Shown: positions 28,823 through 39,565 of the stretch, in pieces
Layout: each line of letters opens with the position of its first letter
Numbering within the stretch: the first letter of the stretch is position 1
The notes under the pieces: generated by a model
The model's database searches: none
The model's input: only the letters and a program-made list of their open reading frames with translations
Told to the model about the DNA's origin: nothing
Program-made: the position numbers and the translations under genes
Assembly (NCBI GenBank): GCA_018674655.1
Contig: JABGZQ010000064.1
Coordinates: 9,019-73,018, forward strand
DNA length: 64,000 bases
Origin: Fidelibacterota bacterium
GTDB lineage: Bacteria > Fidelibacterota > Marinisomatia > Marinisomatales > TCS55
Reading direction: 5' to 3'

Positions 28823-31800
28823 ATGGTAAAAGAAAAGATATATCCACTGGTAGATCAAAACGCATTCCACGATGCTTGTGGCACTGGATTTATCGTATCA
28901 CATTCAGGCAAACCGGAGAAGCGAATCCTACCCTTGGCGATTAAAGCACTCCAACGATTGGCGCACCGTGGTGCAACATCGGCTGATAATGAAACAGGGG
29001 ATGGGGCCGGAATCCTCACGGATATACCAAGGCTTTTTTTTCAAGAAGTTTTAAAAGAAGACCTCAATATTAAGCTTCCATTTAGGCGTCCATTTGGTGT
29101 AGCCATGGTTTTTACTACGCGGCGAGAATTCAATTGGCTTGAAGAAATAGCAAGAAAAAAAGCAAAAGAAAACGGGTTTAAAACATTAGCCGTACGGGAA
29201 GTGCCCGTCAATGAGAATACCTTGGGGAAAACAGCAAGAAAATTGCAGCCGTTCATTATTCAGTTTTTTTTCACTGTAGCGCAAAAAGAAAACCGACCCA
29301 TAGAAGCACGCCTATACTTATTAAGAAAATCGATTGAAAAGGAGATCAGGGAGAAAAAGAAAAAATCTTATATTTGCTCATTATCTTCAGATACAATTGT
29401 TTATAAAGGTCTAATGACATCCACTCAATTGGATTGTTATTACACAGACCTTACCCATAAAAAGTATATTGTAAAATTGGCATTATTCCATGAACGGTTT
29501 TCTACAAATACTCAATCAACGTGGGCAATGGCTCAGCCCTTTCGGATGTTGGCTCACAATGGTGAAATAAATACTATAAAGGGCAACCGTCTTTGGATGC
29601 ACGCTCGGGAAAAAGTTATTCAATCACAATTTTGGACGGATGATATTGATATACTAAAACCGATCGTAAGTAAAAGCGGCAGCGACTCAGCCAGTATGGA
29701 TAATATTCTAGAATTTCTGACAAAAAGCGGTCGCAGTATTTTCAGAAATATCATGATGCTGGTCCCCGATCCTTACGAGTATAATAAAATAATACCATCA
29801 GCATTAAAGAGTTTTTTCATTTACCATGAAAATTTTATGGAGCCTTGGGATGGTCCCGCTGCATTAGTCTTTACCGATGGAAATTATGTGGTGGCCAAAA
29901 TGGATCGTAATGGCCTCCGCCCTTTACGCTATACTGTTACCAAGGATGGATTGATTATCATGGCTTCAGAAGCTGGTGTTGTTGACGTTGAAGATAATAA
30001 TCTTCTGGTTCATCATCATATGACCTCCGGAGAAATATTTGCTGTTTCTCTTAAAGGGAAAGGTATTCTTCTTAATGATAGGATCAAACGTGAAACTGCC
30101 GGAGAAAGGCCCTATTCCAAATCATTGAAGCAGCACATGTCTTCAATAAAAAGAAAAGATGTAAATGAAGAATTTGGGATTTACGGCTTGCCAAAAGAAG
30201 GGTTTGACCAACGGCTCCGCGTTGCTTTTGGATGGTCATCAGAAGATCTAACGCGATATTTGATTCCTATGGCAACCAGTGGCAGAGAACCTCTGGGTTC
30301 AATGGGAGATGATACGCCGCCGGCTGTCATGTCCCAGCACGATCGTCGTTTTTATGATTATTTTAAACAAAGTTTTGCTCAGGTTACTAATCCCCCGATT
30401 GATTCAATTCGAGAAAGAAGTGTCATGGCTCTTTTTAAATACTTGGGTTCAGAAAATAATTTGCTGGATGAAAATCCAACTTTTGGTGGTGCACTTCGGA
30501 TTGAAAGTCCGATTTTATCTCCTCTGGATATTATCGAACTTTTTCATAGAAAAGAGAATTATCCTAACGAAAAAATTTCAACCCACATATCTATAGATAA
30601 GGATTTAGATACTCGCTTAAAATCGATAAAGAGAAAAGCAAAGGTAGCTGTTGAGAAAGGGGCAAAAATTATATTTTTATCCGATGAGAATTTGATCGAA
30701 GGCAAATTGCCCTTACCCATGCCATTGGTAGTCTCAGCGATTCACCATCATTTGGTTAAATATAAAATGCGAGCCCAGGTATCATTGATCCCCATCTCCG
30801 GCGATATTGTTGAAGATCATCATGTGGCAGTTTTAATCGGTTTGGGGGCCAGCGCGGTTTACCCCTATATGGCGTATGAACTGATTCGTGAACACTTTGC
30901 CAATGACGAAGACTGGCCCGACAAAATGGGCAATTATCGATATGCACTTGAAAAAGGTCTGCTTAAAATAATGGGTAAAATGGGCATATCCACCTTAAGC
31001 AGTTACCACGGCAGTATGCTGTTCCACGCTTTTGGGCTGGATCATGAATTTCTGAAAAAATATTTTCCTTCGATTCAAAGCATAATTGGCGGAATTGGCT
31101 CAAGCCAGATTTATAGAATTTTACTCAAACGTCATGATGCTGCTTTTGAATCGGTAGAGCCGGAGTTTATTGAAAAGGGATATTTCCGTTTCCGGCGTAA
31201 TGGTGAAAAGCACGGCTTTGCCCCTAAATATTTTAAACCAATCGGGCAAAAGGCCCAGCAAAAAGAGGTAAAGTCGACAAAATCAGACGAATTTATTTAC
31301 CTGCGTAATTTGATGACTATAAAGAGCCATCGTAAATCGATTCAAACAGATCAAGTTGAATCGACTCAAAAAATATTAAACCGGTTTGGATCTGGCGCCA
31401 TTTCATTTGGGGCTATTTCAGAAGAGTCCCACCGTGTATTGGCGCGAGGAATGGCCATGGCTGGTGCCCGCAGCAATACGGGCGAGGGGGGTGAAATGGA
31501 AGATCGGTACAGCCGTACCAATCCGGACAAAGATGTGAATTCGTATATTAAGCAGATCGCCAGTGGCCGTTTCGGTGTATCGGTAGATTATTTAGCCGCC
31601 GCTCGTGAAATTCAGATTAAAATGGCTCAGGGGGCCAAGCCGGGCGAAGGGGGTCAATTGCCGGGGCATAAAGTTTCAGCTCAAATTGCCCACGCCCGGT
31701 CTGCCACACCGGGGGTGCCATTGATTTCGCCCCCTCCCCACCACGATATTTATAGCATTGAAGATATCAAGCAGCTCATCCATGATCTAAAAGAAGTGAA

Positions 31801-33295
31801 CCCCCGAGCAAAAGTATCTGTAAAACTGGTGGCTCAACCGGGCGTAGGAACGGTTGCTTCTGGTGTTGCCAAAGCCGGCGCAGATATTATTCTCATTTCC
31901 GGCGGAGATGGCGGCACAGGTGCAAGCCCTTTGGGTTCTCTAAAGCATACCGGTTTTCCTTGGGAATTGGGCCTTTCCGAGACACACCAGGCTTTGGTAG
32001 CCAATGGTTTAAGAGAACAAATAATTCTTCGAGTTGACGGCGGTTTGAAAACAGCCAGAGATATTGTAATGGCAGCCATTATGGGCGCCGAAGAATTTGA
32101 TTTTGGCACATCGGTGATGGTGGTACTAGGTTGTGTCATGGCGCGGCAATGCCACCTTAATACTTGCCCTGCGGGAATCGCCACCCAAGACAAGCATTTC
32201 ATTAAAAAATTTCGTGGGAAACCAGAAAATATAAAATATTATTTGGAAGCAATAGCAAAATCGATCCAGCAGCAAATTGCCGAGATGGGCTTTCAAAAAT
32301 TGTATGACATTATTGGCAGAACCGATCTGTTGGTCATGGATGCCACTGCAAAATCTGTCATAAAAGAAAGAGGATTAGATTTAAAATCCATTATTAATCC
32401 TGAGTCGAAGAAGGGATTACCATTGGCGAGTTCATTAAAGGTCCGTCTGCAGGGGGCTCGCAATGATGACAGTCTTGATGACGAAATTTTGAATGAAGTC
32501 CGACCTGCGATCATGACTCATGGTCATGCGGTCGTTATCAAAAGTGTGAATAATACGATGCGATCGATTGGTACACGTATATCGGGCGAAATTGCATTCC
32601 TTTATGGCAAAGGCAACTTTAACGGCAATATCCAGATACGAATGGGTGGTGCTGCAGGCCAAAGTTTTGGGGCATATTTGACAGATGGTGTTGAATTGCG
32701 TTTAAAAGGGGTTGCCAATGATTATGTTGGCAAAGGTCTTACCGGTGGATTGATTTCAGTAAGGATGCCTCTGGCGGTGCGTCGTAAAAAAGGTGAGCAT
32801 ACAATTATTGGGAACGTAGCCCTTTATGGCGCCACAGGGGGACATTTGTTCGTAGCCGGAAGGGGTGGTGAAAGATTTGCCGTAAGAAATAGTGGTGCCG
32901 CCGCTGTGATTGAAGGAGTTGGGAATCATGGCTGTGAGTATATGACCCGCGGTGCCGTGGTTGTTTTGGGGGAAATCGGAGCCAATTTTGGCGCCGGGAT
33001 GACAGGTGGCCAAGCTTTTGTTTATGCGCGCAATAAGGCCATTTCAAAAAAACTGAATAAAGAATATGTGCGAGAAGATGATTTGACCGAAAGTGATATC
33101 AACCTCCTTTACCGTTTACTGCGAAACCATGAATTTCATACTGGGTCTGTTATTGCTAAAAGCATCATGGCGGATTGGGAAACGCATCAAGTATATTTTC
33201 GTCGGATTACACCCGTGGCATTAGAGATTGTTGATTTCCAAAATATTTATGATATGCAGGTTGCTGACAGGATGGGCGTAATGCTAAACGAGTAG
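28823..33295 (+). CDS. gltB: glutamate synthase large subunit (GOGAT alpha chain)
   Basis: 1490 aa. Ntn amidotransferase Cys after a short propeptide (HDACGTGFI); LAHRGA; FMN/Fe-S domain (NTGEGGE, KMAQGAKPGEGGQLPG, SPPPHHDIYSIEDL, CHLNTCPAGIATQD); C-terminal GXGXG beta-helix domain. Confidence 0.95.
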   Translation: MVKEKIYPLVDQNAFHDACGTGFIVSHSGKPEKRILPLAIKALQRLAHRGATSADNETGDGAGILTDIPRLFFQEVLKEDLNIKLPFRRPFGVAMVFTTRREFNWLEEIARKKAKENGFKTLAVREVPVNENTLGKTARKLQPFIIQFFFTVAQKENRPIEARLYLLRKSIEKEIREKKKKSYICSLSSDTIVYKGLMTSTQLDCYYTDLTHKKYIVKLALFHERFSTNTQSTWAMAQPFRMLAHNGEINTIKGNRLWMHAREKVIQSQFWTDDIDILKPIVSKSGSDSASMDNILEFLTKSGRSIFRNIMMLVPDPYEYNKIIPSALKSFFIYHENFMEPWDGPAALVFTDGNYVVAKMDRNGLRPLRYTVTKDGLIIMASEAGVVDVEDNNLLVHHHMTSGEIFAVSLKGKGILLNDRIKRETAGERPYSKSLKQHMSSIKRKDVNEEFGIYGLPKEGFDQRLRVAFGWSSEDLTRYLIPMATSGREPLGSMGDDTPPAVMSQHDRRFYDYFKQSFAQVTNPPIDSIRERSVMALFKYLGSENNLLDENPTFGGALRIESPILSPLDIIELFHRKENYPNEKISTHISIDKDLDTRLKSIKRKAKVAVEKGAKIIFLSDENLIEGKLPLPMPLVVSAIHHHLVKYKMRAQVSLIPISGDIVEDHHVAVLIGLGASAVYPYMAYELIREHFANDEDWPDKMGNYRYALEKGLLKIMGKMGISTLSSYHGSMLFHAFGLDHEFLKKYFPSIQSIIGGIGSSQIYRILLKRHDAAFESVEPEFIEKGYFRFRRNGEKHGFAPKYFKPIGQKAQQKEVKSTKSDEFIYLRNLMTIKSHRKSIQTDQVESTQKILNRFGSGAISFGAISEESHRVLARGMAMAGARSNTGEGGEMEDRYSRTNPDKDVNSYIKQIASGRFGVSVDYLAAAREIQIKMAQGAKPGEGGQLPGHKVSAQIAHARSATPGVPLISPPPHHDIYSIEDIKQLIHDLKEVNPRAKVSVKLVAQPGVGTVASGVAKAGADIILISGGDGGTGASPLGSLKHTGFPWELGLSETHQALVANGLREQIILRVDGGLKTARDIVMAAIMGAEEFDFGTSVMVVLGCVMARQCHLNTCPAGIATQDKHFIKKFRGKPENIKYYLEAIAKSIQQQIAEMGFQKLYDIIGRTDLLVMDATAKSVIKERGLDLKSIINPESKKGLPLASSLKVRLQGARNDDSLDDEILNEVRPAIMTHGHAVVIKSVNNTMRSIGTRISGEIAFLYGKGNFNGNIQIRMGGAAGQSFGAYLTDGVELRLKGVANDYVGKGLTGGLISVRMPLAVRRKKGEHTIIGNVALYGATGGHLFVAGRGGERFAVRNSGAAAVIEGVGNHGCEYMTRGAVVVLGEIGANFGAGMTGGQAFVYARNKAISKKLNKEYVREDDLTESDINLLYRLLRNHEFHTGSVIAKSIMADWETHQVYFRRITPVALEIVDFQNIYDMQVADRMGVMLNE

Positions 33296-33473
33296 TTTTT
33301 GCCTTAAAGTACAAGAGTCTGGAGTCGGCACACCTAAATTATTAATGTAAATTATAAATAAATATTAATTTAATATTGTACTATTGCTTTATATATTTTA
33401 TATTAATGGCATATATACCTAAATAAATAATGTATTTATACCATTTATCATAATAAATAAAGGATACAGAATC

Positions 33474-34091
33474 ATGAGAAAATCACTGATTTTAACATTA
33501 ATAACAACTGCCATAACCGCAGTTGGATATGGCCAATCCAGCATTGGGATTGATATTTATAACCGGTATCTATGGCGTGGGACTGATTTCGGAAATGCAG
33601 CGGCACTCCAACCCTATCTCGAGTTTAAAAAAGGGGATTTATCTTTCGGAGCCTGGAGTTCTTGGGCTGTGAATAGTGGCAGCGCCAATGAAAATGATAT
33701 CTATGTTTCTGCCGAGTTTAAATCTTTTTCCCTGACCGTTACAGATTACTTTTTCCCAGGATATGAAGGAGGGGATAAACTTTTCGACTACTCAGAAAAA
33801 GCAGGTTCTCACTTTGTGGAAGCCAGTCTGAGCACATCTTTGGGACCCGTTGGTATTACAGCCGGATATTTTTTCGTCGATCCGGATAAATCCACCTACA
33901 TTGAAGCCAGTTACGGGCCGCTGTCAGTGGGTGCTGGGAATGGGATGTATACAATCGAAGGAGAGGATGAGAAAGATTCTTTCCAGGTTGTAAATGTCGG
34001 TCTCACCGCAAGCCGAGAGCAGTTTACGGCAACCTATGTAATTAACCCGCAGCAGGAAACATCATTTCTTGTGTTCGGTGTTAGCTTTTAA
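33474..34091 (+). CDS. small outer-membrane porin-like protein (TorF/Gcw_chp-like) preceding amt
   Basis: 205 aa with signal peptide MRKSLILTLITTAITAVGYGQ. NRYLWRGTDFG and ALQPYLEF resemble motifs of this beta-barrel family. It ends FLVFGVSF. Confidence 0.5.
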   Translation: MRKSLILTLITTAITAVGYGQSSIGIDIYNRYLWRGTDFGNAAALQPYLEFKKGDLSFGAWSSWAVNSGSANENDIYVSAEFKSFSLTVTDYFFPGYEGGDKLFDYSEKAGSHFVEASLSTSLGPVGITAGYFFVDPDKSTYIEASYGPLSVGAGNGMYTIEGEDEKDSFQVVNVGLTASREQFTATYVINPQQETSFLVFGVSF

Positions 34092-34108
34092 TCGAGGGAA
34101 CTCAAATA

Positions 34109-35401
34109 ATGAAAAATAAAATACTTTGGTGTATCTTTTTTTGCATGGGTTCATTACTCATGGCGCAAGATAGCTTGTCTCTTGAGGTGAATGCTTATGC
34201 TATAGATAACCTATTTTTGTTTGTCTGTGCCGTACTTGTGTTATTTATGCAGGCTGGATTTGCCATGTTGGAAGCAGGTTTAAATAGCGCCAAAAACACA
34301 GTAAATATCCTCTTTAAAAACATAATGGACTTGAGCGCCGGTGCCTTGCTTTACTACATTCTTGGATATGGTCTGATGTATCCAGGTGATGGGAATGGGT
34401 GGTTTGCATTTGCAGGATTCGGCGTAAGTGAAGCCGGGGTAGATCCCGCGTCAGGCGCACTCCATCCCCAGGTGGATTGGCTTTTTCAAGTAGCCTTTGC
34501 GGCCACAGCTGCCACGATTGTTTCGGGCGCGGTTGCAGGGCGGTTGAAATTTTCAGCGTACCTGATATACTCAGTAGTACTAACGGGAATTATCTATCCT
34601 ATTAGTGGTTACTGGAAATGGGGCGGCGGCTGGCTAGACCAACTGGGCTTTTATGACTTTGCTGGATCACTCGTTGTTCACGCATTAGGTGGATTTGCAG
34701 GATTAGCCGGTGCTATCGTCCTTGGACCACGACTTGGACGATTTGGAAAAAACGGCCATTCAAAAGTTATTCCCGGATCAAACCTTGCGCTCTCTGCCCT
34801 AGGCGTATTAATCCTTTGGGTTGGTTGGTATGGGTTTAACCCAGGAAGTCAATTGGCTATCAGCGGTGCTGCCAATACTAACGCGGTTATGCTTATTGCC
34901 GCAAATACGACTTTAGCGGCAGCGAGCGGCGCTGTGGCTGCAATGTTAATGGCCTGGTCACTGTATAAGAAGCCAGATTTAACAATGGCCCTTAACGGCG
35001 CATTGGCAGGACTTGTAGGCATCACGGCTAACTGTGATTCAGTTACAAATATTGAATCAATTATCATCGGTTTAGTGGCGGGTTTATTAGTTGTTTTAGG
35101 TATTAAGCTCTTAAATAAACTAAAAATTGATGATCCTGTAGGTGCATGGCCCGTTCATGGTTTGTGTGGTATTTGGGGTGGTATTGCCACTGGTTTATTT
35201 GGCGGGCATCCTTTAGTTGCCCAGATTATTGGATCTATTGTCATTCCAGCATGGGCATTCATAACTATGTTTATTCTTTTTTCAATTTTGAAATCTGTAG
35301 ATTTACTCCGTGTTTCTGAAGAAGAAGAACTTATTGGTTTGGACATCAGCGAACACAAGGAAGAAGCATATGCTGGTTTTCAAATTTTTACTGTAGAATA
35401 G
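34109..35401 (+). CDS. amt: ammonium transporter (Amt family)
   Basis: 430 aa. MQAGFAMLEAG, FAATAATIVSGAVAGR, DFAGSLVVHALGGFAGLAGA, GWYGFNPGS, DDPVGAWPVHGLCGIWGG. Confidence 0.95.
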   Translation: MKNKILWCIFFCMGSLLMAQDSLSLEVNAYAIDNLFLFVCAVLVLFMQAGFAMLEAGLNSAKNTVNILFKNIMDLSAGALLYYILGYGLMYPGDGNGWFAFAGFGVSEAGVDPASGALHPQVDWLFQVAFAATAATIVSGAVAGRLKFSAYLIYSVVLTGIIYPISGYWKWGGGWLDQLGFYDFAGSLVVHALGGFAGLAGAIVLGPRLGRFGKNGHSKVIPGSNLALSALGVLILWVGWYGFNPGSQLAISGAANTNAVMLIAANTTLAAASGAVAAMLMAWSLYKKPDLTMALNGALAGLVGITANCDSVTNIESIIIGLVAGLLVVLGIKLLNKLKIDDPVGAWPVHGLCGIWGGIATGLFGGHPLVAQIIGSIVIPAWAFITMFILFSILKSVDLLRVSEEEELIGLDISEHKEEAYAGFQIFTVE

Positions 35402-35413
35402 GAGGAATAAAAA

Positions 35414-35758
35414 ATGAAACTAATAATTTCAATCATTCAGCCAGAAGAATTACCTGCTATTAAGGAGGAACTTCTTAAGCGCAAGATTTACAAGTTCACC
35501 ATCACTAATGCTAAAGGGCAGGGAAAAGAAATTCCCGTTCAAGAAGTATACCGAGGCATATCACACGAAATTACCCTGCTCATTAAAGTGAGATTGGAGA
35601 TTGCCGTGAATGATGAATATGTAGATGCAGTTATTGATGCCATCACAACTGTGGCAAAACAAGACGGCGACAAAGGTCGCGGAAAAATTTTCATCATGCC
35701 TATCGAAGAATGTATACGAATTCGAACTGGTGAAAAAGGTACCACAGCAATTGGGTAA
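35414..35758 (+). CDS. glnK: P-II nitrogen regulatory protein (GlnK-type by context)
   Basis: 114 aa, aligning without gaps to E. coli GlnB as I remember it (K.I..II.P, T-loop GQGKE...VYRG, KIFI..IEECIRIRTGEKG). It lies immediately downstream of amt. Confidence 0.9.
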   Translation: MKLIISIIQPEELPAIKEELLKRKIYKFTITNAKGQGKEIPVQEVYRGISHEITLLIKVRLEIAVNDEYVDAVIDAITTVAKQDGDKGRGKIFIMPIEECIRIRTGEKGTTAIG

Positions 35759-35867
35759 TTATGTATATTGCGCCATGTATTTCCTTGAAATAACTAAGAA
35801 ATGCTTTAATAATATAGGGGATACAGGCGTAATACATAAAATATTAATAAATGATTAGAGGACAAAA

Positions 35868-36878
35868 ATGGGATTAATTAAAGCTGAGTACATCTGGATT
35901 GACGGACATAAACCGACGGCTAAACTGCGGTCTAAAACAAAAGTATTTGATGGGCCGGTTAACAATTTAAATGAAATTCCTGAATGGGGGTTTGACGGGT
36001 CCAGTACTATGCAGGCAGAAGGGAAAAATAGTGACTGTATGTTGAAACCAGTTAATTTTATTCCGGATCCCATTCGTGGTGGTGATGATATTTTAATTAT
36101 GAATGAAGTTCGAAATGCGGATGGCTCCGTTCATGTATCCAATACTAGATCCCAGTTGGTAGAAATTGCAGAAAAATATAAAGATGAGGAAGCGTGGTTT
36201 GGTATCGAGCAGGAATATACTTTTTTTCAAGGTCGATCTCCACTAGGTTGGCCGGAGGGTGGTTACCCGGCCCCCCAGGGACCATTCTACTGTGGTGTGG
36301 GTGCCGATGAGGTGTTTGGTCGAGATATTGTTGAAGATCATATGGAAGCCTGTGTACAGGCGGGAATTGGTATTTCCGGCATTAATGCAGAGGTAATGCC
36401 AGGACAATGGGAGTTTCAGGTTGGTCCATTGGGCCCCTTAGATGCATCAGATCAACTTTGGTTTTCGCGATGGCTTTTGTATCGGATTGCGGAGGAATAT
36501 GGTGTTAATGCCACCCTTCATCCAAAACCAGTTTCTGGAGATTGGAATGGTGCAGGAGCACATACTAATTTCAGTACAAAATCAATGCGGTCAAAAGGTG
36601 GGTTAAAAATCATTGAAAAGGCTTGTGATGCATTGGGTAAAAAGCACGAAGAACATATTGCAGTTTATGGCGCCCACAATGAGGAACGCCTGACGGGGCT
36701 ACACGAAACATGCTCCATTCATGATTTTCGTTATGGTGTTAGCGATCGAGGTGCGTCTATCCGCATACCGATGGCTACGGCAAATGATGGATATGGATAT
36801 TTAGAAGACCGCAGGCCATCAGCCAATATGGATCCATATGAAGTGTGCGCAGCGTTGATTAATACCTGCTGTTCATAG
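35868..36878 (+). CDS. glnII: glutamine synthetase type II (eukaryote-like GSII)
   Basis: 336 aa. KAEYIWIDGHKPTAKLRSKTK, WGFDGSST, GIEQEYTFF, PQGPFYCGVGAD, NAEVMPGQWEFQVGP, KPV.GDWNGAGAHTNFST, DRGASIRIP, EDRRPSANMDPY. Confidence 0.92.
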   Translation: MGLIKAEYIWIDGHKPTAKLRSKTKVFDGPVNNLNEIPEWGFDGSSTMQAEGKNSDCMLKPVNFIPDPIRGGDDILIMNEVRNADGSVHVSNTRSQLVEIAEKYKDEEAWFGIEQEYTFFQGRSPLGWPEGGYPAPQGPFYCGVGADEVFGRDIVEDHMEACVQAGIGISGINAEVMPGQWEFQVGPLGPLDASDQLWFSRWLLYRIAEEYGVNATLHPKPVSGDWNGAGAHTNFSTKSMRSKGGLKIIEKACDALGKKHEEHIAVYGAHNEERLTGLHETCSIHDFRYGVSDRGASIRIPMATANDGYGYLEDRRPSANMDPYEVCAALINTCCS

Positions 36879-36906: not shown

Positions 36907-36937
36907 GAAGGCCTCAATTTGAGGCCTTCATTTTTTT
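36907..36937 (+). terminator. rho-independent terminator after glnII
   Basis: Perfect 9-bp stem GAAGGCCTC / GAGGCCTTC with a 5-nt loop, followed by A and T7. Confidence 0.85.
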
Positions 36938-36980: not shown

Positions 36981-38321
36981 ATGAAATTCCTACCAAAAAC
37001 AATATTCTTTCTTATTATTTTATCTGCTTGTTCAGAAAAAGTGCCGAGTGAATCAGAAACATGGAATGTAATTCAGGAGGAAATTCTGACACCCCAATGT
37101 GTGAACTGCCATTCTCAAGGAACCGCAATCGCCAAACAGTCTGGATTGATATTAAGCGACGGATTCTCATATGGTGCAATGGTTGGTGTGCCACCAAAAA
37201 ATATTGCAGCAAAAAATGATAATTTGGTTATCGTTAGCAACGAAGGTGGTTTAAAAGGTCTGGGTAAAAGTTTTTTATGGGAAAAAATTAATGCCCACGA
37301 TAGAGAACATTATTTAAGTGATCATCAAAACTATGGGCAGATGATGCCCCCAGGGGATAATTTTTTAAATGATGGGCAATTACAATTTATTAGAGCTTGG
37401 ATAGAAGCGGGTGCACCCGAGTTAGGAATTGTCGCAGATGAAAAATTATTATTGGATTCAAACAAGTATAAACCTCCACCCTTTCATCCTTTGGATCCAC
37501 CGGAAAAAGGTTTTCAGGTGCATCTCGGCCCGTTTGAAGTCCCCCCAAATTTTGAGAGAGAGTTTTTTCATTATACAGATACAAGGTTGAATGAAGATGT
37601 TTTTGTGAATCGAATCCAAATTGAGATGAGACCTGGAAGTCATCATTTCATTCTTTACTCATTTGAGCCAGATACAAAATCTGGCAGGTTACCTGATTTT
37701 GGTGTTAACAGGGAGTTGCGAGATCCAGATGGTGCGATCCATACCTCAACACTAATAACCATGTTAAACCACCAGTTTTTTACTGGAACCCAGTGGCCCC
37801 GTATGGATTATAAATTACCCGAAGGTGTTGCTTTGCGCTTAACCTCAAAGTTTGGTTTGGATCAAAATGCGCACTATGTTAATAGATCCGATTCAGTTAT
37901 TGTGGGAGAGGTTTATTCAAATATCCATACCGTTGATAAATCACAAGTTGAACATATTGCAGAATTATTTGCTTTCTCTAATAGGGACTTTAGCTTGCCA
38001 CCCAAAAAAGTAACCACCGTTGAGCGAACATATCGCGTGAATAAAGATATGTATATTGGTCAAATGTTTTCTCATGCTCATGAATTAATGACCGAATTTA
38101 TTGTCAAAGTCTCAGGGGGCTCTCGAGATGGAGAGGTGGTATACTGGACTGACGATTGGCAACATCCACCTATTTTAGAGTATGACCCATTAATTGAATT
38201 AAAATCTGGGGAAGGGTTATCACTTATTGCGACATTTGATAATTCAACAGATCAAACGGTTAAATTTGGGTTTCTATCAACAGATGAAATGATGATTGTT
38301 TTTGGTTGGTATTTTGAATAA
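36981..38321 (+). CDS. lipoprotein fusing a c-type cytochrome domain to a PHM/DBH-like copper monooxygenase-like domain
   Basis: 446 aa. Lipobox IILSAC and CxxCH (C40VNCH44). The ligand pattern is HH(221-222), H298, HxH(365/367), M437, with STDEMM close to the PHM SSDEM motif. Confidence 0.6.
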   Translation: MKFLPKTIFFLIILSACSEKVPSESETWNVIQEEILTPQCVNCHSQGTAIAKQSGLILSDGFSYGAMVGVPPKNIAAKNDNLVIVSNEGGLKGLGKSFLWEKINAHDREHYLSDHQNYGQMMPPGDNFLNDGQLQFIRAWIEAGAPELGIVADEKLLLDSNKYKPPPFHPLDPPEKGFQVHLGPFEVPPNFEREFFHYTDTRLNEDVFVNRIQIEMRPGSHHFILYSFEPDTKSGRLPDFGVNRELRDPDGAIHTSTLITMLNHQFFTGTQWPRMDYKLPEGVALRLTSKFGLDQNAHYVNRSDSVIVGEVYSNIHTVDKSQVEHIAELFAFSNRDFSLPPKKVTTVERTYRVNKDMYIGQMFSHAHELMTEFIVKVSGGSRDGEVVYWTDDWQHPPILEYDPLIELKSGEGLSLIATFDNSTDQTVKFGFLSTDEMMIVFGWYFE

Positions 38322-38356: not shown

Positions 38357-39565
38357 TTGATGAAAAGAAATAGATCGTTTTTATGGTTGGGACTTTTTTT
38401 AGCCTCAATGGTTTCTGCTGAAAATAACTATCCGATTATATTGGTTCACGGCTTTATGGGGTGGGGTCGAGAAGAAATGGGGAATTATAGATATTGGGGA
38501 GGAAAGGTTGATTTAGAACAATATTTAATAGAAAAGGGATATACGGTTTATACAGCGAATGTGGGGCCGGTTTCTTCAAATTGGGATCGTGCCGTTGAGT
38601 TATACTATCAAATAAAAGGCGGCCAAGTCGATTATGGAAAAACCCACTCCGAATTATATGGGTTAGTCCGTGGACCAGAGGAAAAATCCTATAAAGGATT
38701 ATATTCTGAATGGGATGAAAATCATCCTGTGCATCTAGTTGGGCACAGTATGGGTGGACAGACGATCCGTATGTTAGATTACATGCTGAGAACATCTATC
38801 ATAGATTCCTCCGGGTTATCCGAAGATAGTGGTTTATTAGGGAAAACTCACGAAGGATGGATTAAATCCATCACGTCAATTTCCACGCCACACAATGGCA
38901 CCACCCTTTCAAATATTGTTTCCACGGGCATACCGTTTTTACAGGATTTTATTGCCTTAGCGGCTATTGCGGGAAATTCGTTTTATAATTTTGACTTAGA
39001 GCAGTGGGGATTTCAAAGAACCAAGAATGAATCATGGGGAGACTATTTCAGGCGAATGAGAGAACATCCGGCATGGGGAACAAAAAATATTGTATCATGG
39101 GATGTGAGTGTAGAAGGCGCACGCCAAATGAATTCATTTTGCACCGCAAACCCAGAAGTATATTATTTTTCATTTATTACGAGTAATACAGTATTAGACT
39201 CTACTTCTTATTGCCACGTTCCAGACGAAGGCATGTCGTATATAATCAGAGCCAATGCGAGACTGATGGGAATGAAAAAAGCTTTTTTCGCTGATGGGTC
39301 GTCAACAGATTCAACGTGGTTTGAAAACGATGGAATTGTAAATAAAATGTCTATGTATGGTCCAACAACAGGTTTAAATGGGCCCGATCCCATTACAACC
39401 TATCGGAAAAATGAGTTACTCATTCCTGGTCAATGGTATGTCATGGGAGAATATAGGTCAGACCACCGTAAATTTGCCGGACATAGCTTAAATAAAAATG
39501 AGTTAAAGATATTTAAAAATATATATTCCAACCATATGGAATTATTGTGGTCTTTGCCAAAATAA
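38357..39565 (+). CDS. secreted triacylglycerol lipase (Geobacillus/Staphylococcus-type, family I.5/I.6-like)
   Basis: 402 aa with a signal peptide. YPIILVHGFMGWGREEMGNYRYWGG, GPVSSNWDRAVELYYQIKGGQVDYG and the nucleophile elbow GHSMGGQTIRML are collinear with those lipases as I remember them. Confidence 0.8.
   Translation: MMKRNRSFLWLGLFLASMVSAENNYPIILVHGFMGWGREEMGNYRYWGGKVDLEQYLIEKGYTVYTANVGPVSSNWDRAVELYYQIKGGQVDYGKTHSELYGLVRGPEEKSYKGLYSEWDENHPVHLVGHSMGGQTIRMLDYMLRTSIIDSSGLSEDSGLLGKTHEGWIKSITSISTPHNGTTLSNIVSTGIPFLQDFIALAAIAGNSFYNFDLEQWGFQRTKNESWGDYFRRMREHPAWGTKNIVSWDVSVEGARQMNSFCTANPEVYYFSFITSNTVLDSTSYCHVPDEGMSYIIRANARLMGMKKAFFADGSSTDSTWFENDGIVNKMSMYGPTTGLNGPDPITTYRKNELLIPGQWYVMGEYRSDHRKFAGHSLNKNELKIFKNIYSNHMELLWSLPK

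Follow-up and report, generated by a model that had tools for sequence, protein, structure and literature searches.

A predicted bacterial lipoprotein that joins a c-type cytochrome domain to a copper part of the PHM/DBH kind

In a 64,000-nucleotide (nt) stretch of contig JABGZQ010000064.1 from a marine bacterium of the Fidelibacterota (Marinimicrobia), the whole of which we call the window, we identified a gene for a predicted lipoprotein of 446 amino acids (aa), hereafter the window protein, which we hold with high confidence to combine a two-copper domain of the superfamily of peptidylglycine alpha-hydroxylating monooxygenase (PHM) with a c-type cytochrome domain. As far as sequence and a predicted fold can show, it is established that the copper part is homologous to the catalytic core of PHM and dopamine beta-monooxygenase (DBH) and that both copper sites are intact. 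Taking sequence, structural model and analogy together, we further consider it likely that the protein would be a haem-fed monooxygenase acting on a substrate other than peptidylglycine. Animals use two-copper oxygenases of this kind to make amidated hormones and noradrenaline, and the kind of enzyme is well known from them; what is new is a clade from bacteria whose cytochrome c is fused or encoded alongside, which is free of disulfides and whose substrate pocket differs. To our knowledge, work on PHM, DBH and tyramine beta-monooxygenase (TBM), the 'non-coupled binuclear copper' enzymes, has been confined almost entirely to animals, with ascorbate as the reductant throughout. In the literature searched, no publication dealt with PHM-like proteins of bacteria or with their fusion to cytochrome c, an absence that is in itself no proof.

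Copper part and its relation to PHM and DBH

The full-length AlphaFold2 model, calculated from an alignment of 26 relatives of the window protein (A1), reached a predicted local distance difference test score (pLDDT) of 79.5 and a predicted template modelling score (pTM) of 0.70, and places two all-beta domains after a helical N-terminal part. When this model was compared with the PDB by Foldseek, the 29 best matches were all rat PHM (E 3.9e-12 to 1.6e-9), with 289-304 aligned columns spanning both domains, template modelling (TM) scores of 0.53-0.66 normalised to PHM and an identity of about 15%, followed by double-jelly-roll capsid proteins with E above 1e-6 and a root-mean-square deviation of about 15 Å. 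This bears out the double beta-sandwich that an earlier note on this DNA, written from the sequence alone, had anticipated for the protein.

At the sequence level, the relation to PHM was recovered with a hidden Markov model (HMM) of the copper part made from 111 of 120 representatives, PHM sequences being left out; the 120 form a wide set taken from the representatives listed, each being 300 aa or longer and all pairwise identities lying below 50%. Against rat PHM residues 61-322, whose sequence and numbering were taken from PDB 5wm0_A, this HMM scored 43.6 bits (E 1.9e-10 in a PDB-sized search) with all six copper ligands in register, in agreement with the order of ligands at the CuH and CuM sites that the earlier note had recognised as that of PHM and DBH. 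When A1 was compared with the PHM sequence alone by hhalign, four of the ligands fell into this register as well, with weak statistics (E 0.026, probability 1.9%). The distance from H367 to M437 is 70 residues, the same as from H244 to M314 in rat PHM, so that the equal spacing given in the earlier note holds on the checked numbering. A position check of the translation likewise found every residue where it had been placed: C17, C40-V-N-C43-H44, H221-H222 (GSHHFILY), H298 (NAHYVN), H365-x-H367 (FSHAHE) and M437-M438 (STDEMM).

All six ligands are invariant in A1, and among the ungapped sequences of the 120 representatives they are conserved at 96-100% (H221 118/118, H222 118/118, H298 117/117, H365 113/114, H367 114/114 and M437 110/114), which answers the call for a conservation check of the putative ligands. 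The Glu preceding M437 is kept in 111 of 114 representatives and M438 is not conserved, whereas N296, which aligns with Q170 of PHM, is Asn in 112 of 117; a family-specific W-x-H-P-P motif (W393, H395, P396) is also strongly conserved. Because the ligand pattern is near-invariant in a homologous family that is statistically related to PHM, it is not a matter of chance. The view that the His and Met residues form an accidental motif in an unrelated protein has nothing on its side other than the absence of direct Pfam matches for the window protein, it is refuted by the in-register profile alignment with PHM (E 1.9e-10), the Foldseek matches (E 4e-12) and the ligand conservation, and we give it practically no weight.

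Pfam models point in the same direction for the relatives. Cu2_monoox_C (PF03712) matches 22 of the 26 A1 relatives weakly. The Ekhidna lutea protein P0111 reaches 23.6 bits, against a gathering score of 23, over profile positions 29-137 including the HxH and the Met, and a relative without the haem domain (P0264) reaches 38.2 bits (E 1e-9). One source names P0111 'Copper type II ascorbate-dependent monooxygenase, C-terminal domain', while almost all other relatives are annotated as 'hypothetical'. The similarity to Cu2_monooxygen domains that the earlier note had proposed to look for is therefore present in relatives (PF03712) and in the family profile (rat PHM), and absent for the window protein itself and for the N-domain model PF01082.

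Compared with PHM (the PAM catalytic core; PDB 1PHM, 1OPM, 1SDW, 5WM0), the window protein has in common the two-domain beta-sandwich, the CuH and CuM ligands, the D-E-M motif and the 70-residue spacing from HxH to Met, with Asn at the position aligned with Gln170, but it is bacterial, predicted to be lipid-anchored and preceded by an N-terminal cytochrome c domain, and its reductant would probably be haem instead of ascorbate. The PHM core has 10 Cys, whereas the whole window protein has three (C17, C40, C43) and its copper domains have none, hence no disulfides; conversely, the W-x-H-P-P motif of the family is absent from PHM. DBH, TBM and MOXD1 (PDB 4ZEL) are members of one copper monooxygenase superfamily with PHM (rat PHM core against DBH 4zel_A, E 6e-24); the 50 Foldseek matches listed do not include DBH. 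DBH-type enzymes carry an extra N-terminal DOMON domain, whose counterparts in related proteins hold haem b or take part in electron transfer. The extra domain of the window protein is instead a c-type cytochrome with predicted covalent haem, unrelated to the DOMON of DBH, and the window protein has no dimerisation domain, in contrast to the DBH-type enzymes.

Haem domain and its link to the copper part

By its sequence, the N-terminal module is a mono-haem cytochrome c domain. With a profile of this domain made from 26 diverse members (A2) and a limit of E<=10, 56 sequences of the PDB were retrieved, nearly all being c-type cytochromes and many of them cytochromes c6, with FoxE (E 2.6e-4), a cytochrome c555 construct (trimer; 1.4e-3) and the haem domain of hydrazine synthase alpha (2e-3) as best matches. 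In the last case, profile positions 7-118 align with residues 649-766 of 5c2v_A, from CxxCH through WI..GA, whereas the alignment with FoxE is good over the short MP...WI..GAP segment alone. AlphaFold2 predicts the isolated domain as all-helical with a pLDDT of 90.6.

The haem attachment motif C40-V-N-C43-H44, given at nt 37098-37112 by the earlier note, is indeed the sole CxxCH of the protein. C40 and H44 are invariant in A1, the two Cys and the His are invariant in A2, and among the 120 representatives the residues are kept in 110 (first Cys), 101 (second Cys) and 98 (His). M122 is invariant in A1, and in the 120 representatives Met is found in 98 and the following Pro in 109; by analogy with class I cytochromes c, which normally bind their haem iron through His and Met, M122 is probably the distal haem ligand. 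Exactly one CxxCH or Cx3-4CH is present in 87 of the 92 full-length representatives. As to its form, CxxCH was observed in 44 of these 92 and Cx3-4CH (e.g., CATSGCH, CALSGCH) in about 43.

In the N-terminal part of the A1 members, Pfam gave Cytochrome_CBB3, PSCyt1, Cytochrom_C550, Haem_bd and the N-terminal haem region of fatty-acid cis/trans isomerase, all of them sub-threshold. A planctomycete-type cytochrome, as previously suggested, fits by its motif order, which the domain has in common with the haem domains of PSCyt1, FoxE and hydrazine synthase alpha (CxxCH ... MP ... L..I..WI..GA) at a modest profile similarity, while the Pfam PSCyt1 match itself is not significant (E 0.53, in one of 26 sequences). 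The haem domain of the window protein also has roughly double the length of the PSCyt1 model (59 positions), and about half of the family has Cx3-4CH in place of CxxCH, which distinguishes it from the PSCyt1-type cytochromes.

Most full-length representatives hold both modules, and some relatives of about 310 aa are devoid of the cytochrome domain. In three of four such haem-less homologues with usable context, a cytochrome c gene of the same type adjoins the copper gene. In locus L090 (P0165) it lies 145 nt upstream of a copper gene with its own lipoprotein signal peptide, matches A2 with E 5e-37 and carries the motif CATSGCH; in L091 (P0180) and L092 it lies 28 nt upstream (E 1e-33 against A2); and in L086 (P0264) a 128-aa lipoprotein with CSTCH ... 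MPP ... WI is encoded 34 nt downstream. No cytochrome gene adjoins the haem-less copper gene of L093. The haem-less Cu2_monoox_C proteins of L086, L090 and L091 have the same copper domain and ligands, the same type of cytochrome c and also a lipoprotein character, and they differ from the fused window protein by their split architecture. Since both modules are fused in some genomes and encoded side by side in others, the classical Rosetta stone sign, a functional partnership of the two is supported.

Several further genes were observed at the split loci. The cytochrome genes themselves (L090:3-404, L091:3421-3972) have Cx3-4CH motifs. After the cytochrome c and copper genes, L090:1542-2138 and L091:4985-5575 each hold a gene of about 197 aa; the two products are 26% identical to each other (E 6e-22) and match outer-membrane beta-barrel models weakly, and judged by sequence they may be substrate channels. 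No homologue of this gene was found near the fused genes. In L086:3654-5659, the copper and small cytochrome c genes are followed by genes for a DUF5777 protein, a Rieske iron-sulfur protein and a DUF2231 membrane protein, with a GntR regulator preceding; this cluster could constitute a complete electron-input chain. The third gene of a split locus is thus either beta-barrel-like (L090, L091) or Rieske plus DUF2231 (L086), and neither type occurs near the window gene. Two genes downstream of the haem-less family member in L090 lies an MbnP-family gene (L090:2205-2813), MbnP being a copper-binding partner of MbnH.

With regard to the cellular location, a type IX secretion tail is present in 51 of 150 representatives (P0121-P0270; confirmed with Pfam Por_Secre_tail) and a lipobox-like motif in 36 of the 92 full-length ones. 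On account of these tails, part of the family is probably exposed on the cell surface or released. Other representatives were found fused to FG-GAP, PD40 or Ig-like repeats (e.g., P0141, P0191, P0228). The earlier proposal that the fused cytochrome is a built-in periplasmic electron donor therefore holds in so far as fusion and adjacency support a dedicated redox partner, whereas the periplasmic setting is not established, given the 51 type IX tails. A similar logic is known from cellobiose dehydrogenase, whose cytochrome domain feeds single electrons to lytic polysaccharide monooxygenases (LPMOs). There, too, electrons reach an extracytoplasmic copper oxygenase one at a time from a haem domain, but the folds are unrelated, the haem is of type b, the copper is mononuclear in a histidine brace and the partners are separate proteins.

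The same partnership of haem and copper could also serve an electron-transfer protein or oxidase without substrate oxygenation, which might, for instance, act on O2, superoxide or H2O2 as a reductase or oxidise a metal ion, Fe(II) among others, and in which electrons could flow between haem and copper in either direction. Among PDB sequences the haem domain matches FoxE best, a cytochrome that oxidises Fe(II), SodC-like genes follow the family gene in L059 and L082, an MbnP-family gene lies near the family member in L090, and the type IX-secreted members have no obvious reductant. We nevertheless judge this alternative unlikely, for the FoxE match is good over the short segment described above alone, and the full set of CuH and CuM ligands including the Met, together with the D-E-M motif that is typical of the O2-activating site, is nearly always kept despite the great divergence of the family, although it would be unnecessary for plain electron transfer.

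Substrate pocket, proposed mechanism and distribution

In the 1OPM complex, R240 and Y318 of PHM bind the carboxylate of the peptide and N316 binds the backbone. These three substrate-anchoring residues of PHM proper are lacking in the window protein, where F363, I439 and F441 align with R240, N316 and Y318, respectively. Throughout the family, the R240 position is mostly occupied by T, S, V or F, the six commonest residues there in the 120 representatives being T, S, V, F, Q and W and Arg not being among them, the N316 position by I/L/V/F and the Y318 position by F/Y/I. Because hydrophobic residues stand at the sites by which PHM grips the carboxylate, it is more likely that the substrate is not a glycine-extended peptide and would instead be a non-carboxylate, possibly lipid-like compound. 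A hydrophobic substrate is our leading guess, held with low confidence, and it is based on these pocket replacements, on the beta-barrel-like gene in two split loci and on the lipase gene that follows in Marinimicrobia.

These replacements also bear on whether the protein could be a genuine peptide-amidating enzyme which hydroxylates the C-terminal glycine of peptides or N-acylglycines, with haem c in place of ascorbate. The fold and the copper ligands are as in PHM, and amide- or peptide-cleaving hydrolases adjoin some relatives, namely a penicillin amidase in Ekhidna, M20 peptidases in L059, L078 and L084 and a beta-lactamase-family protein in L038. Yet the substrate-holding residues are replaced in the window protein and are likewise unlike those of PHM family-wide, and the hydrolase neighbours vary by lineage, none of them being conserved, so that we regard peptide amidation as quite improbable.

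Our preferred reading remains that of a haem-fed monooxygenase. In the mechanism that we infer, which extends from metal and haem loading over the direction of electron flow to the monooxygenase chemistry, the nature of the substrate and the cellular location, the protein would be an extracytoplasmic lipoprotein of two modules, an N-terminal mono-haem cytochrome c of about 130 residues and a C-terminal PHM/DBH core of about 270 residues. C40 and C43 would carry the haem, its proximal ligand being H44 and its distal one probably M122, CuH would be bound by H221, H222 and H298, and CuM by H365, H367 and M437. The haem would take single electrons from a donor in the cell envelope and pass them to CuH, replacing the supply by ascorbate, cytochrome b561 or DOMON in the animal enzymes. 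Two one-electron steps would bring both coppers to Cu(I), whereupon CuM would bind O2 and hydroxylate a C-H bond of the bound substrate. For a periplasmic lipoprotein, a soluble cytochrome might act as the ultimate donor, or else a membrane complex; in L086 the Rieske and DUF2231 proteins could play this part. Enzymes of the PHM/DBH superfamily hold two copper ions some 11 Å from each other and hydroxylate in an O2-dependent manner. In PHM, CuH receives the electrons, and CuM, across a solvent cleft, binds O2 and abstracts the substrate hydrogen; the electron route to CuH and then to CuM is still debated.

Several observations weigh against this interpretation. Scans of the window protein with Pfam and NCBIfam gave no match, phmmer against the PDB gave a chance antibody match alone (E 1.7), and the narrow A1 profile had no PDB matches, the profile of 111 representatives being needed. 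Although the family profile aligns to the N domain of PHM, the Pfam model of that domain, Cu2_monooxygen (PF01082), had no match in any scan. The best sequence E-value of the haem domain (2.6e-4) is modest, and Foldseek on the isolated haem-domain model yielded nothing below E 7, with human cytochrome c at rank 2 (E 8.5). Members with a type IX tail are probably located beyond the outer membrane, and a respiratory donor is not apparent there. Among the loci compared, no neighbour gene is common across phyla, and a conserved clue to the substrate is therefore lacking.

The last point, together with the fact that catalytic activity is known for no bacterial member, would suit a non-catalytic lipoprotein for copper binding, storage or sensing, or a PNGase F-like binding module that retains the PHM fold, as no conserved operon partner is seen among these loci. 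The top structural matches are, however, all PHM and not PNGase F or lectins, and the fused or adjacent cytochrome c suggests redox turnover over storage; we consider such a role very unlikely.

The family is large and widespread. We found 1083 relatives of the window protein in a collection of 5.8 billion proteins, the closest in metagenome-assembled genomes (MAGs) of Marinimicrobia and about 50%-identical ones in Ekhidna, KSB1 and other taxa. An exhaustive profile search over 1.84 billion representatives returned 3825 clusters (50% identity) at E<=1e-3, 308 of them at E<=1e-30, and some family clusters number hundreds of members in ocean metagenomes. The 326 family loci come from at least nine phyla, the distribution including Marinimicrobia, Bacteroidota, Rhodothermia, Gemmatimonadota, KSB1, Calditrichia, Poribacteria, Planctomycetota and Verrucomicrobia. 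At a chance that we put slightly short of even, this would be a broad prokaryotic family of PHM/DBH-type enzymes, running on a dedicated fused or adjacent c-type cytochrome in the periplasm or at the cell surface of abundant marine heterotrophs (SAR406/Marinimicrobia, Bacteroidota, Gemmatimonadota and others) and oxygenating a hydrophobic non-peptide substrate. Such a family, if real, would represent a new route by which organic matter is attacked with O2, and the animal enzymes that process hormones may have their bacterial root in it; the identity of the substrate could reveal an unrecognised O2-dependent step in the processing of lipids or dissolved organic matter by marine bacteria. A natural PHM-type enzyme with a covalent one-electron haem donor would, moreover, allow intramolecular electron delivery to be triggered and timed, and a bacterial version would be easy to produce in bacteria.

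Gene features and genomic neighbourhood

The coordinates of the gene, its domains and ligands, and the flanking elements are compiled in Table 1. The N-terminus MKFLPKTIFFLIILSAC17, read off the translation, is K-rich with a hydrophobic core followed by L-S-A-C and matches the lipobox [LVI][ASTVI][GAS]C, in line with the lipoprotein prediction (IILSAC) of the earlier note. Its strong terminator in front of the gene corresponds to a terminator-like hairpin, which may end the upstream glutamine synthetase gene and set the start of a new transcription unit.

Table 1 Positions in the window of the gene, its predicted domains and ligands, and the adjoining elements
Feature	Position (nt)	Strand	Basis
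Terminator-like hairpin	36907..36929	+	10-bp stem with 6 GC pairs, 3-nt loop, then T-run; ATTTTTTT
Monooxygenase-like open reading frame (ORF)	36981..38321	+	ATG start; 446 aa/446 codons
Predicted lipoprotein signal peptide	36981..37031	+	Lipobox I-L-S-A-C17, Cys17 codon 37029-37031; from sequence alone
Mono-haem cytochrome c domain, about residues 24-150, all-helical	37050..37430	+	A2 profile matches; AlphaFold2 domain model
Haem c attachment motif C40-V-N-C43-H44, H44 as proximal ligand	37098..37112	+	Sequence; family conservation
M122-P123, candidate distal (sixth) haem ligand, YGxxMPxG motif	37344..37349	+	Conservation; role inferred
First beta-sandwich domain, about residues 176-320, equivalent to PHM CuH domain	37506..37940	+	AlphaFold2 strands 177-318; Foldseek; HMM alignment
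H221-H222, equivalent by alignment to PHM CuH ligands H107-H108	37641..37646	+	HMM aligns SHHf to VHHM
H298, equivalent by alignment to PHM CuH ligand H172	37872..37874	+	HMM (NsHy to QVHY); hhalign
Second beta-sandwich domain, about residues 321-446, equivalent to PHM CuM (catalytic) domain	37941..38318	+	AlphaFold2 strands 325-445; Cu2_monoox_C in relatives; HMM/hhalign
H365-A-H367, equivalent by alignment to PHM CuM ligands H242, H244	38073..38081	+	HMM (SHtH to VHTH); hhalign
M437 in D-E-M motif, equivalent by alignment to PHM CuM ligand M314	38289..38291	+	HMM (DEmm to DEMC); hhalign
Lipase gene with signal peptide	38357..39565	+	Pfam Lip_C, E 6.6e-62; 35 nt downstream

The secreted lipase that had been noted as the next gene is confirmed by its Lip_C domain. 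The further suggestion that the two genes may form a unit of their own is not borne out, because no terminator was found after the lipase gene in the sequence examined and the pairing is restricted to Marinimicrobia: the lipase lies downstream in 33 of 33 Marinimicrobia loci, in which the whole region is syntenic, and in none of the loci of other phyla. On account of this restriction, and with no partner gene recurring across phyla, a conserved functional pair of lipase and monooxygenase was rejected.

Directly upstream, at 28823-36878 (+), the window holds a nitrogen-assimilation cluster with genes for a large glutamate synthase (GOGAT), a 205-aa ORF, the ammonium transporter Amt, PII and a short glutamine synthetase (GS) of 336 aa. 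The cluster keeps its position in L005, L006, L008, L033 and L035, and does not do so in all Marinimicrobia loci. A link between the monooxygenase-like gene and this cluster, although it is kept in a 50%-identical relative, was set aside because a terminator intervenes and the cluster is absent outside the phylum. The 205-aa ORF (33474-34091, +), located between the glutamate synthase and ammonium transporter genes, has a signal peptide and no Pfam match, and a 205-aa gene occupies the same position in the 50%-identical relative (L005:2456-3073); from its sequence and position, its product may reside in the outer membrane and have to do with the uptake of nitrogen.

In other phyla the neighbours are heterogeneous and comprise, besides the M20 peptidase and beta-lactamase-family genes mentioned above, housekeeping genes. 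In two Bacteroidota genomes (L059, L082), genes for Cu/Zn superoxide dismutase-like lipoproteins of 194-197 aa (Pfam Sod_Cu, E 4e-15) lie directly downstream. In Ekhidna, the penicillin amidase (Ntn hydrolase) gene is located 42-46 nt upstream on the same strand (L036:3741-5906, L044:3616-5910), and a DUF4488-like gene of about 236-242 aa, which recurs in four Bacteroidota loci (L036, L044, L052, L056), follows directly downstream.

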